Position numbers and translations under genes: made by a program
Virus record (IMG/VR): IMGVR_UViG_2843291059_000004
Location: 70,479 to 134,478 of that record
Strand: one strand, 5' to 3'
Source of the DNA: a virus
Taxonomy: Duplodnaviria > Caudoviricetes
DNA: 64,000 bases
Part shown: piece by piece, positions 28,148 through 32,950 of the stretch
Position numbering within the stretch: the stretch's first letter is position 1
Layout: the number at the start of each line of letters is the position of its first letter
The notes under the pieces: generated by a model
What the model was told of the DNA's origin: nothing
The model's input: only the letters and a program-made list of their open reading frames with translations
The model's database searches: none

Positions 28148-28640
28148 AAAGTTAATATGCCCTCTTATATTTGTTGTGTATAAAAAATATAGGATGCGGC
28201 ACCATGTAAAAATAAAATAGCCCCTAGAGTGCTGGGAAACCCTAAGAGCCATATCGCCTATATTTATATAATGTAGGAATCGAAAGATAGAAACAAGGAT
28301 ATGGATGCTATATGCTGAGATAAAAGCTCGGTTTTATCGTATTGTTAAAATATGGTAATAATTGAGTGCTAAGTAGTATTTACAATGGGCGGTCAGCAGC
28401 CGATCCACTCCCCTATTATATAATGTAGGAGAGCGGAAGGTTCATCGACTAAAAAGGGTCAGTGAGCAACCACTGGAAGGATAGTCAGTTCTGGACGAAA
28501 GTTCAGAAGTCCACCTCAGACGTAACCAGACGACTTAAAGAAGTAGGTGGAATGAGGAGACACGCTGTTCTCTGGCGCGATACAAGTAAGAGAAAAATGA
28601 TTGAATAATTGAACAAAAAGAAAAAGTACACTGTTGTTCG

Positions 28641-28669
28641 TTGACAGCGTACTCTAAAAAGTGTATAAT
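28641..28669 (+). promoter_or_regulatory. consensus sigma-A promoter for the putative antitoxin sRNA
   Basis: TTGACA-17-TATAAT. Confidence 0.85.
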
Positions 28670-28674
28670 AAAAA

Positions 28675-28790
28675 CAGCCAAGGACTCCTATAGACGAAGC
28701 CCTCGGTGAACAGTTTAAAATGCAATGTAAATGCTTGGACACATTCACATCACAGAAAGAGCCACCTACTGCTAATAGGCGGCTCTTTTA
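28675..28790 (+). ncRNA. putative type I antitoxin sRNA (~115 nt)
   Basis: Lies between a consensus promoter and the terminator 28756-28789; contains CATTCACATCAC, complementary to the toxin start region. Confidence 0.6.
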
Positions 28791-28913
28791 CTTATCACGG
28801 CTTTCGCTATGATGATGTAACATCTTGAAAATCTCAAGAAGCGTTTTGACAAAGCCAGCAAAGCCGAAAATCAGCATTGCGACATAGTAGACCGTAGTGA
28901 TCTCAATAGTCAT
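28788..28913 (-). CDS. 41-aa single-TM peptide, putative type I toxin (MTIEITTVYYVAMLIFGFAGFVKTLLEIFKMLHHHSESRDK)
   Basis: GAGGAGTG RBS, hydrophobic N-half with charged tail, long structured 5' leader, own promoter. Confidence 0.7.
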   Translation of the reverse strand: MTIEITTVYYVAMLIFGFAGFVKTLLEIFKMLHHHSESRDK

Positions 28914-29060
28914 TACACATCACTCCTCTCGGTAGACTCACCGAAAGGGAGTAAAAGATATGGCATTCTCCTTCTCGCCTTTCGGCTGAATGGGAGGACG
29001 TTCGCCTATACACGTCTATGAAAGGAAGAAAGTAAACGCGGAATCCTTGACTGCCAGATT

Positions 29061-29090
29061 ATTATACACCCGTCTGTCATATCCTGTCAA
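29061..29090 (-). promoter_or_regulatory. sigma-A promoter for the toxin mRNA
   Basis: TTGACA-18-TATAAT on the minus strand. Confidence 0.75.
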
Positions 29091-29200
29091 TATCACTATA
29101 ATGTAATTTATAATACATAAAAAAGAGATTGCTTTCCTGAAGTTTTCTGGCTATAATATAAGTACAATCGTGTATCCAAAATATATGGAGGTATTTTATT

Positions 29201-29533
29201 ATGGCTAGACCCAAAGGAAGCAAGAACAAAGCAAAGGTTCTTGATGGCGTTGATTATGCAGCGCAGATCGCTGAGAAGAATGCCGCAGCGGAATCTATCG
29301 CTGAAGAAATCGCATCTCTCGGCTCGAATATTGCTGCACTGAATGCTGAGAAAAAAGCAAAAGAAGCAGAGCTGAAAAAACTCAATAAAGAGATTGCAAA
29401 ACTCGAAAAGAAAAAGGCTGATGCCGATGAAAAGATTGCGGCAGAGTTGAATCGCAAAAAGGCAGAAGACATTGTTGCCAACGCACTGGCCAATGGCATG
29501 ACTGCTGAAGATATCGCTGAACTTTTGAAGTAA
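29201..29533 (+). CDS. AT-hook-like/coiled-coil protein (intron cargo)
   Basis: MARPKGSKNK N-terminus; promoter TTGCTT-17-TATAAT 29129-29157; terminator 29550-29587. Confidence 0.8.
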   Translation: MARPKGSKNKAKVLDGVDYAAQIAEKNAAAESIAEEIASLGSNIAALNAEKKAKEAELKKLNKEIAKLEKKKADADEKIAAELNRKKAEDIVANALANGMTAEDIAELLK

Positions 29534-29592
29534 GGTATCATCATAAAACAAAGCCCGACTTCCCTACTACTGGGAGGCCGGGCTTTTGCTAT

Positions 29593-29793
29593 TTAGTCTT
29601 CGAATTTGATAACGCCGCACTGTTTAAGTATGGCTATTATAATTTTAATTGTAGCGCCCATACTTAAACAAATCATATTGGCTATCTGCTCAGTTTGAGA
29701 TTTTCCCTCGAGTCCTCGCATTTTTTGCATTAAAAGATCGATACCGTTGTTCGTTTCAGTCTCTAAGATTTCATTAAATTCTTTATGCGTCAT
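29593..29793 (-). CDS. 66-aa hypothetical protein (intron cargo), paralogue of 31060..31266
   Basis: AAGGAGGT RBS; promoter TTGACA-18-TATAAT 29880-29851. Confidence 0.7.
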   Translation of the reverse strand: MTHKEFNEILETETNNGIDLLMQKMRGLEGKSQTEQIANMICLSMGATIKIIIAILKQCGVIKFED

Positions 29794-29975
29794 AACTGGC
29801 GACCTCCTTTCAGTTGGAATTTTAGCATAGTACATAGTGATTGCTTATCTATTATAGGATATATCGTAATATCTTGTCAATCTCTGTTTTGGATTATTGT
29901 GGAGCCCTGTGTAGCAAAGTTTAGTTGACACTATCTCTGAACCGTGATACACTCTTGTAAAAGGAGTGTTAAATC

Positions 29976-30173
29976 ATGGAAAACAATAAGAAGCATGTGC
30001 CGGATTATGAAATTTCGACTTACAGTAATCGGAAACCGACTGAATATACATATTCAGGGAATGGTAGTTCTGCAAATCCACTGGAAACATATTTGAGAAA
30101 TCATAGCGACAATCATTCAAATTATAATCAAGAAGGAGGAGCAGATGACAGAGATAATCAAACTAATAAATAA
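29976..30173 (+). CDS. 65-aa low-complexity protein (intron cargo)
   Basis: AAGGAG RBS; promoter TTGACA-17-TACACT 29925-29953. Confidence 0.6.
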   Translation: MENNKKHVPDYEISTYSNRKPTEYTYSGNGSSANPLETYLRNHSDNHSNYNQEGGADDRDNQTNK

Positions 30174-30756
30174 TGTAGAGACACTTTTCAATATCTTTGT
30201 TCCAGGTGCTATTTGCGTATGGTGTTACTCTAAGTTATCCTTGCGGAAAATGGAATACCAAGGATATCTCACTCTTAGTATTGCCATTGGTTTCGTAATT
30301 AAATACTGTGTGGATTACGCTGACCGTTTGCTAGGACGGTTTACAATTGCTGGATTTCCGATAATTGTTGTGTACGTTTTAGTTGGAATCATCGGAGCTA
30401 TCATTTTTTATAAAGGAAAGAATTCGATTTGTGTAAGACGCAATGTGTCGAAATTTCTTGGTGTTGACTCTGGTGACAATGTTTGGACAAGGCATCTCGA
30501 TCCAGAAGGAAACTTGCTTACACTCCATATGGATGATGACACATATATTCTTGGATTGTTTGAGAATGCAGACGATGAGTATATTACACTGACGAATTAT
30601 TGCTATGCAAAAACGCCTGCTGGAAAAGATATGGATGAGGCTGCACAAAAGCCATACACTGATGCTGTTTTATGCGTTCCAACAAAGCGAGTTAAGCAAT
30701 TTGAAATTTTGTATCCAAACCCTGAGTCCAAAACTGCAAAGTATGTTCTGCGTTAA
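30145..30756 (+). CDS. 3-TM membrane protein with a C-terminal beta domain (DUF6338-like; intron cargo)
   Basis: IFVPG, three hydrophobic helices, NVW, YILG; terminator 30774-30801. Confidence 0.65.
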   Translation: MTEIIKLINNVETLFNIFVPGAICVWCYSKLSLRKMEYQGYLTLSIAIGFVIKYCVDYADRLLGRFTIAGFPIIVVYVLVGIIGAIIFYKGKNSICVRRNVSKFLGVDSGDNVWTRHLDPEGNLLTLHMDDDTYILGLFENADDEYITLTNYCYAKTPAGKDMDEAAQKPYTDAVLCVPTKRVKQFEILYPNPESKTAKYVLR

Positions 30757-30807
30757 AACAAATACGACCACTACCCTGCTACTTTGTGTAGCAGGGCTTT
30801 TCTTTTG

Positions 30808-30897
30808 TCACCACTCATACCCACAATTCTTACACTTGAACTGTTTGCCGGGCTTTCTGCTTGCCCAGCCCCATATTGCTACATCAACCAACTTTGC
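30808..30897 (-). pseudogene. 3' remnant of the Zn-ribbon gene (AKLVDVAIWGWASRKPGKQFKCKNCGYEW*)
   Basis: Aligns with the C-terminus of 32514..32927. Confidence 0.8.
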
Positions 30898-30923
30898 ATT
30901 TTTTAATCGAGGTGAATTCGTAT

Positions 30924-31076
30924 ATGAAAATTGAAATTGAAACAAAAGAACTCACTGCCTTTCTTGACTATATCAAGGGGCAGCGAGAACCTATTGGTAA
31001 CACTCAAGTATTAGCTGAGGAAGTTGTTAAGGGACTGCCTCAAAAAATCACTTCACAACTCAATCTTCGTACTTGA
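30924..31076 (+). CDS. 50-aa hypothetical protein (MKIEIETKEL...; intron cargo)
   Basis: GAGGTG RBS. Confidence 0.6.
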   Translation: MKIEIETKELTAFLDYIKGQREPIGNTQVLAEEVVKGLPQKITSQLNLRT

Positions 31077-31266
31077 GTACACCAATTTTTTCGAGAGTAG
31101 CAACAAGAGATGCGGTGGCGTCTGTGACTGCCATATTGTACGCAGCGGCGACCATTTGCTCAACTGTTATCTTCTTGTCTTCTCTTTCCGACAGAACGTT
31201 GGCAAAATCATTCAGATTCTTCTCGATCTCGTCCTGAAGAATCTTATTAAATTCTTCTCTAGTCAT
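31060..31266 (-). CDS. 68-aa hypothetical protein (intron cargo), paralogue of 29593..29793
   Basis: AGGAGG RBS; MTREEFNKIL...GVLKYED versus MTHKEFNEIL...GVIKFED. Confidence 0.75.
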   Translation of the reverse strand: MTREEFNKILQDEIEKNLNDFANVLSEREDKKITVEQMVAAAYNMAVTDATASLVATLEKIGVLKYED

Positions 31267-31358
31267 TGTAGTCTCCTCCTTTCTTCTAGTCTTTATTTAA
31301 GTCTACCATAAAAAGACAAAATGTAAAGAGAACGGGAGGTCACATTTGACGTAGAATG

Positions 31359-31660
31359 TTAGAACTCATACCCACATGCCTTACATTTAAACTGCTTTCC
31401 AGGTTTCTTACTCGCAAATCCCCAAATTGCTACATCAACCAGTTTAGAGCCTGCACCTATTTTGTCGAGATGGGGGCATCCGCAGACGGGGCATTTTGGG
31501 GTGTAAACAGGTTTTGCTACTTCTGGAGTTTTGGTTTCAGCGCCTCTTCCCTCTCGGCTCTCACCTTAGCGTCAAAATCGTTAAAGTCTTTTTCGAGTTG
31601 GCTATCACCATCAAACGGATTTGTTACCACACGTCTTGGTTCGCCAGAGCCATAATCAGA
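31359..31660 (-). pseudogene. 5'-truncated, frameshifted copy of the Zn-ribbon gene
   Basis: ..NDFDAKVRAEREE / PVYTPKCPVCGCPHLDKIGAGSKLVDVAIWGFASKKPGKQFKCKACGYEF*; frame change near 31520. Confidence 0.8.
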
Positions 31661-31697
31661 GACACGTTAATTCACATCCTTTTCTTTGGAGGTATTT

Positions 31698-31919
31698 ATG
31701 TATTATTTTGCACATTACGAAAAAGATCAAAACTATTTTGCGTCTGATTGTAATAACTCAAAGGACGGAAGTGTTGAAGCTAAAATTTGGAACAAAGGAA
31801 CTCATTCTTGGGAGCAGAAATGTTTTTCTGCGTTCGAAGAATTCAAAGCTTTTACGGATCAACTATGTATGGCTGACGAGGGATCTCTGTCACGCGGTAA
31901 GATTCAGTATCATCTATGA
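31698..31919 (+). CDS. 73-aa hypothetical protein (intron cargo; 3' end overlaps the convergent gene)
   Basis: GGAGGT RBS, ATG 31698. Confidence 0.5.
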   Translation: MYYFAHYEKDQNYFASDCNNSKDGSVEAKIWNKGTHSWEQKCFSAFEEFKAFTDQLCMADEGSLSRGKIQYHL

Positions 31920-32496
31920 CGATTAAATCGACTTCTTCACTTACGGAGTCATATTTCTTTGCGGTCAAAGAAGTCATTTTCTTTACGAAGTCAACCATAT
32001 TAGAGAAGTCCATATTACTAATATCGTAGTTGCCTTTATGAAACTCTTCTGTGTATACGTCGTGCATTCCAGATGCCACAGCATAGTCTATCCCAATATT
32101 GGGGTGAACTATTTTACTACTTGTGTCTGTATAAAGAATGACGTTATTTCCATCTTCAATAGCCGCATCGATTAGGTAAACAATATTTTTGCTGGTTCTT
32201 GCTGATAATTCCTGTAAGAGAAAATTGAGCTCTTCTTTTACGGACATTAACATCATGTCAGAAATTTTTAAGAGGTCAAGAATTACAATATGTGTTTTCT
32301 GTTTATTATCTAATTCGCCAGCTCCGGTGAATGCAACTGCGTGACCTTGTTTGGTTAGGTAAGATTTCTGAGCAAAGTTGTCGTGCCATTCTTCCACTAT
32401 TTTATTAGTATCAGGGTCCGTTAGTGTAATTGTTGTACACACATCAGTGGATACAACAATACCGTTTTTGTTACAGACAGCTAGTGCTAGAGACAT
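31852..32496 (-). CDS. Ntn-hydrolase/proteasome-beta-like protein (intron cargo)
   Basis: MSLALAV..GIVVSTD N-terminus, K..G.AVAFTG, ASG, SVS..VD pattern. Confidence 0.55.
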   Translation of the reverse strand: MSLALAVCNKNGIVVSTDVCTTITLTDPDTNKIVEEWHDNFAQKSYLTKQGHAVAFTGAGELDNKQKTHIVILDLLKISDMMLMSVKEELNFLLQELSARTSKNIVYLIDAAIEDGNNVILYTDTSSKIVHPNIGIDYAVASGMHDVYTEEFHKGNYDISNMDFSNMVDFVKKMTSLTAKKYDSVSEEVDLIVIDDTESYRVTEIPRQPYIVDP

Positions 32497-32513
32497 TCTA
32501 ATTCACTTCCCTC

Positions 32514-32927
32514 TTACCATTCGTAACCACAGTTATCGCAATGAAACTGAACTCTAGGCTTACGCGCCAGCAGTCCCCAAACGGCGGCGTCAACTAATTT
32601 TGCCGTGGTTGATACTTTGTGAATGTTGGGGCTATGACAGGTTGGGCAGGTAGGCACATACTTCGGATGTTCTTTCTCCTCCAAATCGGCTCTATATTGA
32701 GCGTCAAAGGCATTGGCTTTATCTTGCATCTCTTTAACAAAATTCGGGTCTAATTCTGAGATATCTCTTTTGGGTCTGTTTGTAAACCTCCAATTGATTT
32801 TTTTCTGCTCGCTCATTCCGTTCCATTGAGGCAATAGAATAGTATCTCTCAAACAAAACGCGCACAACAAATCTCTTTTATGGTAATATTTGTCGCAAAA
32901 TGGGCAATACCGTACATATTCTTCCAT
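32514..32927 (-). CDS. double zinc-ribbon protein (intact copy; intron cargo)
   Basis: CPFC..CAFC and CPTC..CDNCGYEW; GAGGAG RBS. Confidence 0.8.
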   Translation of the reverse strand: MEEYVRYCPFCDKYYHKRDLLCAFCLRDTILLPQWNGMSEQKKINWRFTNRPKRDISELDPNFVKEMQDKANAFDAQYRADLEEKEHPKYVPTCPTCHSPNIHKVSTTAKLVDAAVWGLLARKPRVQFHCDNCGYEW

Positions 32928-32950
32928 GATTTCTCTTCTCCTCGAAATCG

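Follow-up and report, generated by a model that had tools for sequence, protein, structure and literature searches.

The stretch of DNA analysed here (the window; 64,000 nt) makes up the second half of an IMG/VR provirus of 134,478 bp, a gut prophage of Faecalibacterium, and it contains a cassette of about 450 bp, measured from promoter to promoter. The minus strand of the cassette carries a 41-codon open reading frame (ORF) for a small hydrophobic peptide, preceded by a long leader and followed, just past its stop codon, by a hairpin that we call T1. The plus strand carries the promoter and the terminator of a putative small RNA (sRNA) that would be transcribed against the 3' end of the peptide gene. 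[quoted passage not shown] The sequence features of the cassette, their conservation, the selection on its coding sequence and the selection on RNA structure of the toxin strand were all computed directly.

Results

Promoters, Terminators and the Putative sRNA

The cassette is bounded by a toxin promoter on the minus strand (29061..29090; TTGACA-18-TATAAT) and an sRNA promoter on the plus strand (28641..28669; TTGACA-17-TATAAT), both with a 12/12 match to the two hexamers. They face each other across the 41-codon ORF, in line with the convergent promoters described in the initial annotation. Only three perfect TTGACA/TATAAT sites were present on the two strands of the 64-kb window, against 0.06 expected, and two of the three are those flanking the cassette. 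Across about 130 related loci, both promoters have kept their hexamers and spacing while the spacers diverged. The toxin promoter occurs with several unrelated spacer versions, including those of two copies in non-intron contexts (L270 and L271), all retaining the 18-nt spacing; the sRNA promoter of the same two copies preserves its hexamers and 17-nt spacing despite unrelated spacers. The −10 box of the sRNA promoter and the A-run downstream of it are the complement of the terminal U-run of the toxin RNA, so the conservation of both is confounded with selection on the toxin strand.

Hairpin T1 (28756..28795; 11 pairs, nearly invariant) appears to combine two roles, as the terminator of the sRNA and as a structural hairpin of the toxin RNA. 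Its stem (28759-28785) is followed by UUUUACUUAU on the plus strand and only by UUUCUG or UUCAUU on the minus strand, and the terminator scan flagged T1 on the plus strand alone. The proposal of one bidirectional terminator shared by the two genes does not hold: the hairpin is common to both, but with a U-run on the plus strand only, it is a good terminator for the sRNA and not for the toxin. The last two codons of the toxin gene and its stop codon (GATAAGTAA) are the complement of the sRNA terminator U-run. A second terminator, on the minus strand, was flagged at 28706..28678; this local hairpin, T2, is followed by CUGUUUUUAU, which includes a U-run at 28674..28668.

Between its conserved promoter and T1, the predicted antitoxin sRNA spans about 120 nt (28675..28795, plus strand), ends in a stem and a U-run, and would be fully antisense to the toxin 3' untranslated region (UTR). 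This agrees with the plus-strand RNA of similar size recognized previously. At the sequence level, the antisense RNA of a type I TA system is represented here by a conserved promoter and a terminator that lie within the region which covariation of the toxin strand indicates is transcribed. A conserved fold of the sRNA itself was considered and ruled out; the z-score of its own fold was −1.8, and its mid-region was weakly structured in all variants. No part of the cassette varies more than the sRNA region, with its small plus-strand ORFs.

The Peptide Gene

The toxin ORF (28788..28913, minus strand) encodes 41 amino acids with a single hydrophobic segment and a polar to charged tail that ends in DK. 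The transmembrane (TM) peptide that the initial annotation had placed on this strand is borne out: the ORF was intact in 47/47 loci of the first set, which comprised 13 DNA variants, and pN/pS values of 0.1-0.4 between alleles reveal purifying selection. The Kyte-Doolittle maximum over 15 residues was 2.09 for the peptide of the window, and the peptides of other alleles (37-41 aa) are equally hydrophobic. The product would thus have the properties of a type I toxin, being shorter than 60 aa, hydrophobic, likely directed to the membrane and, to judge from its selection, truly coding.

A search of the peptide against Pfam and NCBIfam returned no family at E <= 1-10, and membership in the BsrG/TxpA, Fst or Hok sequence families was not found in Pfam. 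In PHROGs, the peptide matched only phrog_23825 (function unknown; E = 2.8e-4). The ESM Atlas assigned no family; in one of its neighbour clusters, 23% of members carry the Hol_Tox family, but the score was just 0.85. When the phage collection was searched with DNA and by tblastn, there was no match, or only matches at E >= 3 to unannotated DNA.

Leader and Shine-Dalgarno Hairpin

The leader of about 140 nt carries the Shine-Dalgarno sequence (SD) AGGAG at 28927..28923, 9 nt ahead of the ATG and inside a predicted SD-sequestering hairpin of 12 pairs (28922..28952, minus strand). The anti-SD-like ACUCC already noticed in this leader pairs with AGGAG and forms the 5' arm of the hairpin. Pairs were counted in 31 distinct full-length sequences, and at least 30 of these form any given one of the 12 pairs. 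Double compensation is seen at two pairs, and three alternate between Watson-Crick and G·U pairing. RNAalifold, applied to 17 distinct leaders, likewise placed the SD in the hairpin. The hairpin is predicted to be closed both with and without the long-range helix described in the following section.

A Long, Self-Closing Toxin mRNA

The minus-strand RNA from 29053 to 28668 closes on itself when folded, with a z-score of −10.1 (−8.4 for allele B). For each allele tested, the minimum-energy fold pairs the 5' leader with a 3' strand at 28675..28707, which can alternatively form T2. The 5' strand of this closure helix consists of two blocks. Block 1 (29040..29053; mRNA nt 1-14) pairs with 28688..28675, and block 2 (28994..29010; mRNA nt 44-60), which includes an anti-SD-like CCUCC run, pairs with 28705..28689. 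No allele lacks the helix in its minimum-energy fold, and this extends to the copies from other genomic contexts (L270, L271, L289 and L296).

Conservation of the closure helix was assessed in the 31 distinct sequences. Block 1 was 99.1% paired, with five pairs changed on both sides, and block 2 was 98.7% paired, with three such pairs. The whole 29-bp helix was 98.9% paired and contained eight doubly compensated pairs, compared with 34-50% pairing and 0-1 doubly compensated pairs in slid controls, where the partner was moved by 1-3 columns. The non-Watson-Crick cells consisted of 108 G·U in 10 columns versus 4 A·C, two of the latter being register artefacts of one sequence. A few allele lineages account for most of the covariation, so these cell counts overstate the number of independent events. 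Each G·U pair on the minus strand corresponds to an A·C mismatch on the opposite strand, which places the constraint on the minus-strand RNA and not on a DNA repeat or on the intron-sense RNA.

The same observations bear on the resemblance between the starts of the two RNAs, previously recorded as an inverted repeat of about 14 nt. This similarity is present and is longer than first seen, about 31 nt in two blocks. It follows from the 3' tail of the toxin RNA being at once the complement of the sRNA 5' end and the partner of the toxin's own 5' leader; the first ~31 nt of the sRNA are the exact complement of the closure helix 3' strand. An inverted repeat could also act in DNA, either as terminal repeats of a mobile cassette or as an operator pair for one repressor, with no long transcript and no fold-back. 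In favour of this, the unit with the repeat at its two ends has been gained, lost and relocated, and the promoter regions are alike on the two sides. A constraint on DNA, however, would not give the bias by which differences between the arms are nearly always G·U on the minus strand. In addition, a 29-nt insertion that splits one arm of the helix forms a hairpin of its own, and the neighbouring hairpin is stable on the toxin strand only. An exclusively DNA-level role is thus very improbable, although the repeat could function in DNA while the RNA also folds back.

The neighbouring hairpin (28722..28755, minus strand) lies in the toxin 3' UTR. On the toxin strand it formed 12-14 bp in 7/7 variants, at −9.6 to −17.8 kcal/mol, compared with −1.8 to −7.3 kcal/mol on the sRNA strand. 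All structural selection detected in the region of overlap is on the toxin strand, with none for a fold of the sRNA itself, and it extends 120 nt beyond T1. Such toxin-strand-only structures over the whole sRNA gene, together with a terminator-like minus-strand site at its far end, argue that the toxin RNA spans the sRNA gene. From fold and covariation, the full-length toxin mRNA is probably about 385 nt long (28668..29053, minus strand), with a transcription start near 29053 and a 3' end in the U-run at 28674..28668. The two RNAs would accordingly overlap at their 3' ends by at least ~100 nt, and most likely by ~120 nt.

A long overlap of this kind differs from the Fst/par-type layout to which the cassette was initially likened, where the two RNAs would overlap only at a shared bidirectional terminator and the sRNA would pair in trans, through a 12-nt repeat, with the spacer and start codon of the toxin mRNA. 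The genes are convergent, the T1 hairpin is common to both, and a complementarity of 12-13 nt does exist in the window (28742-28753 versus 28911-28923). T1 also has a weak match, at 29.3 bits and below the gathering score of 49, to Rfam RefA9, an intergenic sRNA of the Enterococcus faecalis plasmid pTEF1 (PMC4408782). The local alignment of this pairing, however, scored 24, whereas shuffled sRNAs gave a mean best score of 23.7 ± 3.7, which is chance level. (RNAduplex on the whole RNAs produced long gapped duplexes no better than those of shuffles, and local pairing alignment was used instead.) The pairing is also not conserved across alleles: the sRNA motif is altered in the L003-type variant, weakening or abolishing the pairing even though the ribosome-binding site is unchanged, and nothing comparable occurs in allele B. 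The 12-mer is instead one arm of the toxin-strand hairpin at 28722..28755, where structure and not sequence is conserved. No Fst match was found in Pfam and no fstAT match in a permissive Rfam scan, which returned only the sub-threshold RefA9 hit; T1 lacks a U-run on the toxin strand, and covariation extends the toxin RNA across the whole sRNA gene. Neither the start-codon pairing nor the Fst/par layout is upheld by these data, and we consider it highly unlikely that the cassette works in this way.

Relatives, Alleles and Host

Homologues of the peptide with 78-100% identity were found on 46 viral contigs of ~110-150 kb and in one Faecalibacterium metagenome-assembled genome (MAG). Anchoring on the tape-measure gene contributed 80 further loci, out of 131 tape-measure loci, and an invariant 21-mer that includes the toxin stop codon and T1 matched 55 viral, 3 genome and 46 metagenome contigs. 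The host is Faecalibacterium, judging from the flank of a related isolate-derived provirus, which has 58-60% G+C and a protein 98-99% identical to proteins of F. prausnitzii and F. tardum.

The cassette occupies one fixed site in 34 of the 77 informative tape-measure loci, as allele B in 15 of them, A in nine, D in six, C in three and E in one; alleles A and B are found in all three exon-1 clades. At empty sites (L084, L052, L101, L065 and L128), the sequence at window position ~28596 is joined to that at ~29145 through 27 nt, and what sets filled sites apart is the segment 28597..29144. The 27-nt joint contains a single promoter, which serves the downstream gene. One RNA scaffold was found with at least seven different peptide ORFs: the hydrophobic ORFs of alleles D and E, and of further alleles from metagenomes, are 37-41 codons long and quite distinct. 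Among the divergent alleles are those at L071:9249-9362 and L053:9247-9363 (both minus strand). All of these ORFs have (D/N)K-stop as their last codons, complementary to the U-run of the sRNA terminator.

Copies in other settings define the unit further. In L270 and L271, homology starts and stops at the two −35 boxes; the hexamers are perfect or match at 5/6 positions, and the 17- and 18-nt spacers are unrelated. The setting of L271 is chromosome-like and non-phage, with a GntR/FCD regulator gene on one side and a CitMHS transporter gene on the other; L289 and L296 show another cargo arrangement. In one metagenome copy (L297), the ORF is broken and the cassette decayed. Taken by its distribution, the cassette is autonomous and mobile and is not specific to the intron described below.

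The exchange of peptides within a constant scaffold is also relevant to whether the peptide is a toxin. It might instead be an antisense-tuned small membrane protein outside TA biology, such as a lysogenic-conversion or superinfection-exclusion peptide or a holin-like modulator, with no role in addiction or killing. The peptide has no homology to known toxins, the ESM Atlas cluster includes Hol_Tox members, and the cassette sits among small prophage 'moron'-like genes with strong promoters. On the other hand, the predicted multi-layer repression, by a closed mRNA, a buried SD and full antisense cover of the 3' UTR, is a hallmark of toxic peptides. Unrelated hydrophobic ORFs have been exchanged within one regulatory scaffold, and the cassette is also found by itself between chromosomal genes, as is seen for type I loci. 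We consider a non-TA role of the peptide unlikely.

Intron Context

In the window, the cassette lies in the variable cargo region of a probable group I intron (28148..32950, plus strand; core at 28161-28507) inside the tape-measure gene. The core matches Rfam RF00028 at 24.6 bits, below the gathering score of 50; the E-value, from a search of 2 kb, is 0.0013. It is nevertheless well conserved, following directly after exon 1 with 94-98% identity in 79/80 loci. The one other locus (L083) stops 16 nt beyond exon 1, too early to be informative. By comparison, exon 1 protein identity across the loci is only 60-98%.

The homologue of exon 2 begins 1.9-6.3 kb later, with the length of the cargo, and its homology starts at one fixed residue, after the conserved ...CTCCTCnAAAnnG ending in G. 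An in-frame stop codon lies 0-39 nt upstream of the exon 2 junction in most loci, and up to 114 nt upstream in a few. The first start codon is 75-261 nt downstream of the junction in the majority of distinct junction types, with several others having one at or just upstream of it. This arrangement is consistent with flanking coding segments that are joined into one gene and a downstream segment that would not stand by itself. An intron-less allele was not found among the 80 loci, 79 of which are long enough to show the core. When an intron-less tape-measure gene was sought among longer proteins, the homologues all ended a few residues after ..NGAG.

The nesting of the cassette in an intron, as originally proposed, is supported by the group-I-like core and by an exon 2 that usually has no start codon of its own. 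It is qualified by a core score below the gathering score and by the cassette's presence in non-intron contexts. That the cassette lies within a group I intron, in its cargo region and antisense to it, is plausible for the window.

Discussion

The combination of a small TM peptide, an SD-sequestering leader, a convergent antisense sRNA and a prophage location makes a type I TA-like core well supported from sequence comparison. We propose that the cassette is probably an autonomous type I TA system with the architecture of bsrG/SR4 and bsrE/SR5. The peptide set appears to be new and unrelated to known toxin families, within an architectural class that is already known from bsrG/SR4.

Proposed Mechanism

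In this proposal, we infer that both RNAs are produced, that the peptide is toxic and that an RNase takes part, and the biological role is inferred likewise. The toxin mRNA would comprise, in order, the 140-nt leader, the SD in its 12-bp hairpin, the 41-codon ORF, T1, the second 3' UTR hairpin and a terminal hairpin with a U-run. Its last ~31 nt would fold onto leader nt 1-14 and 44-60, in a helix that closes the mRNA and buries its 5' end. The plus-strand sRNA of ~120 nt, ending at T1, would be perfectly complementary to the toxin 3' UTR over its full length, a stretch that takes in the closing helix's 3' strand. On the model of bsrG/SR4 (PMC3834814), the sRNA may pair with the toxin 3' UTR, and RNase III may cut the long sRNA/mRNA duplex. 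The 5' leader would be displaced in the process, and its 5' end exposed or the leader refolded, leaving the mRNA to be degraded or untranslated. If the supply of sRNA stopped upon loss of the element, a stable, closed toxin mRNA could outlive the sRNA, and the peptide would then damage the membrane. The addiction or abortive-infection role initially suggested for the cassette is a possibility by analogy.

The cassette might be tied more closely to its surroundings, as an addiction module of the intron cargo region or of the prophage that is wired into the intron. The toxin gene runs antisense to the intron, and the antitoxin sequence, indeed the full complement of the toxin mRNA, would therefore be contained in the tape-measure pre-mRNA or in the excised intron RNA. 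The toxin could then be silenced by transcription late in the phage cycle, and released when the intron or prophage is lost. We regard this wiring as doubtful. If it were true, an intron free of a homing endonuclease would gain a post-segregational means of persistence, and promoter-bounded cassettes with interchangeable ORFs would represent a mobile unit across phage introns, other phage sites and chromosomes.

Significance

Faecalibacterium is among the most abundant, health-associated bacteria of the human gut. Literature searches found no type I TA system described for Faecalibacterium or inside any intron, and the cassette would be the first type I TA candidate in this gut bacterial group; the experimentally characterised Gram-positive systems available for comparison are those of Bacillus, Enterococcus and Clostridioides. 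The comparative support is unusually strong, with ~130 natural copies, seven or more toxin ORFs per one RNA scaffold and natural empty sites. For the long 5'/3' closing helix, the copies also amount to a set of naturally occurring mutants; biochemical probing of this helix has so far addressed only bsrG/bsrE-type mRNAs. If toxic, the peptide could help to explain the upkeep of ~130-kb prophages and of a cargo-laden intron, and it could become a counter-selection tool for Faecalibacterium genetics. Type I toxins are already reported in use for counter-selection in C. difficile (bioRxiv 10.1101/2020.03.04.976019, preprint of PMC7699646).

Comparison with Known Systems

The cassette most resembles bsrG/SR4 and bsrE/SR5, and also txpA/RatA and yonT/SR6, of Bacillus subtilis prophages and prophage-like elements, which have convergent genes and an antitoxin complementary to the toxin 3' end. 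The antitoxins of B. subtilis are described as having 100-140 bp in common with the 3' ends of their toxins (PMC6562991). According to the structural account of bsrG/SR4 (PMC3834814), a long helix of bsrG mRNA, P1, joins nt 1-35 to nt 232-262, and SR4 is complementary to the 3' part; upon SR4 binding, bsrG nt 1-33 become single-stranded, the SD helix is extended and RNase III-dependent decay is promoted. The predicted toxin mRNA of the cassette shares with bsrG a long 5'/3' helix whose 3' strand lies inside the antitoxin-complementary region, an SD in a double-stranded stem, a small single-TM peptide and a prophage location. It differs in its peptides, which have no sequence similarity and no family model match, and in its host, Faecalibacterium (Oscillospiraceae) and not Bacillus. 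Moreover, the terminator of bsrG follows P1, whereas the cassette has the internal T1 directly after the stop codon, and its closing helix and terminator share sequence. A further difference is its position within, and antisense to, a probable group I intron.

In fst/RNAII (par) of the E. faecalis plasmid pAD1, as in the cassette, convergent transcription crosses a shared terminator hairpin, the small TM peptide has a charged tail and the toxin RNA 5' end is base-paired; the weak similarity of T1 to RefA9 of pTEF1 adds to this likeness. The overlap, however, is confined to the terminator in par and probably amounts to ~120 nt in the cassette, where repeat-mediated pairing at the start codon is unsupported. 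For hok/sok of plasmid R1, as summarised in PMC3834814, the full-length toxin mRNA is closed by 3'-5' pairing, with fold-back inhibition. Sok pairs with the 5' leader (mok region) and activation occurs through 3' trimming, whereas the sRNA of the cassette would cover the 3' end and only the 3' UTR; the cassette also has a Gram-positive host, and its peptide has no Hok family match. The hok fold-back is an analogy only, the principle of fold-back alone being common to both.

The type I TA systems of C. difficile prophages, such as CD0977.1-RCd11 of phiCD630-1, offer a comparison from gut Bacillota. Their toxins are given as 30-56 aa long with lysine-rich tails, in a sequence family unrelated to the peptide of the cassette, and the descriptions drawn on here (PMC7699646, PMC6563280) record no 5'-3' closing helix; unlike the cassette, they are not intron-borne. 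The same reports describe convergent antisense pairs with long overlaps and small hydrophobic peptides with charged C-termini, as are predicted for the cassette, and indicate that these systems, residing in prophages of gut Bacillota, contribute to prophage maintenance.

Cassette junctions and neighboring cargo

Comparison of tape-measure loci with and without the cassette placed its junctions inside promoter elements. Empty sites carry a single promoter, TTGACT-17-TATAAT, which serves the downstream plus-strand gene 29201..29533 (for example, L084:9036-9064). In filled sites, the shared TTCGTTGAC constitutes the -35 element of the sRNA, while a new TTGCTT precedes the old -10 element (GGCTATAAT at 29150; compared regions, window 28597-28646 and 29131-29158). 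This rearrangement suggests that the junctions may have been made by recombination at promoter consensus sequences.

The third perfect promoter of the window (29851-29880, minus strand) is predicted to drive an 80-aa ORF (29835..29593), a 68-aa paralogue of which (31266..31060) is located deeper in the cargo region. This small gene also has a homologue adjoining the cassette in L270, and in two further cassette contexts, L289 and L296, the flanking DNA resembles window 29838-29898. Judging from these arrangements, the cargo units appear to have been shuffled together.

The toxin reading frame

The final two codons and the stop codon of the toxin, GATAAGTAA or AATAAGTAA (window 28786-28796), are invariant across all alleles, including those with unrelated ORFs, and are complementary to the U-run of the sRNA terminator. 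This complementarity suggests that the C-terminal (D/N)K of the peptide may be dictated by the RNA. In L297, a locus on metagenome contig ERZ773103.5897, the toxin ORF is disrupted and only its last 11 codons remain open, with the terminator intact; this cassette is possibly a decayed copy or an assembly error.

Every allele also contains an additional AUG positioned 0-2 nt past the Shine-Dalgarno sequence (window 28918-28920, minus strand), which opens a tiny out-of-frame ORF. This ORF spans five codons in alleles A and E and three codons in allele B, where it ends in an AUGA that spans the main start codon; in allele D, the AUG opens a longer +1 ORF. The element could be a translational decoy or a coupling element.

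The putative intron and the sRNA terminator

In six related loci (L060, L115, L054, L061, L118, and L124), the match to the intron core after exon 1 extends for just 256-262 nt and the cassette, where present, is displaced approximately 365 nt downstream. The short match and the displacement together suggest a further insertion within or just past the ribozyme core of these loci. Tape-measure homologues from other contigs (1515-2069 aa; P0008 and P0018) all share approximately 12 near-identical terminal residues (..KVNMP.Y...); in the window, the opening 36 nt of the putative intron (28148-28183) encode these residues. This common end would mean either that the intron 5' end is conserved well outside the present phage group or that the tail of approximately 12 residues is a genuine C-terminus.

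The sRNA terminator (28759-28795, plus strand) is a strong sense-strand terminator that lies ahead of tape-measure exon 2, inside the putative intron. Late transcription would reach exon 2 only via read-through or antitermination. Its hairpin (28727-28787, plus strand) matched the Rfam family RefA9 at 29.3 bits, a sub-threshold score (gathering score, 49), and the match consists mostly of the stem GCCGCCUA...UAGGCGGC. The sRNA RefA9 originates from the E. faecalis plasmid pTEF1, where it lies in the efa0080-1 intergenic region (PMC4408782).
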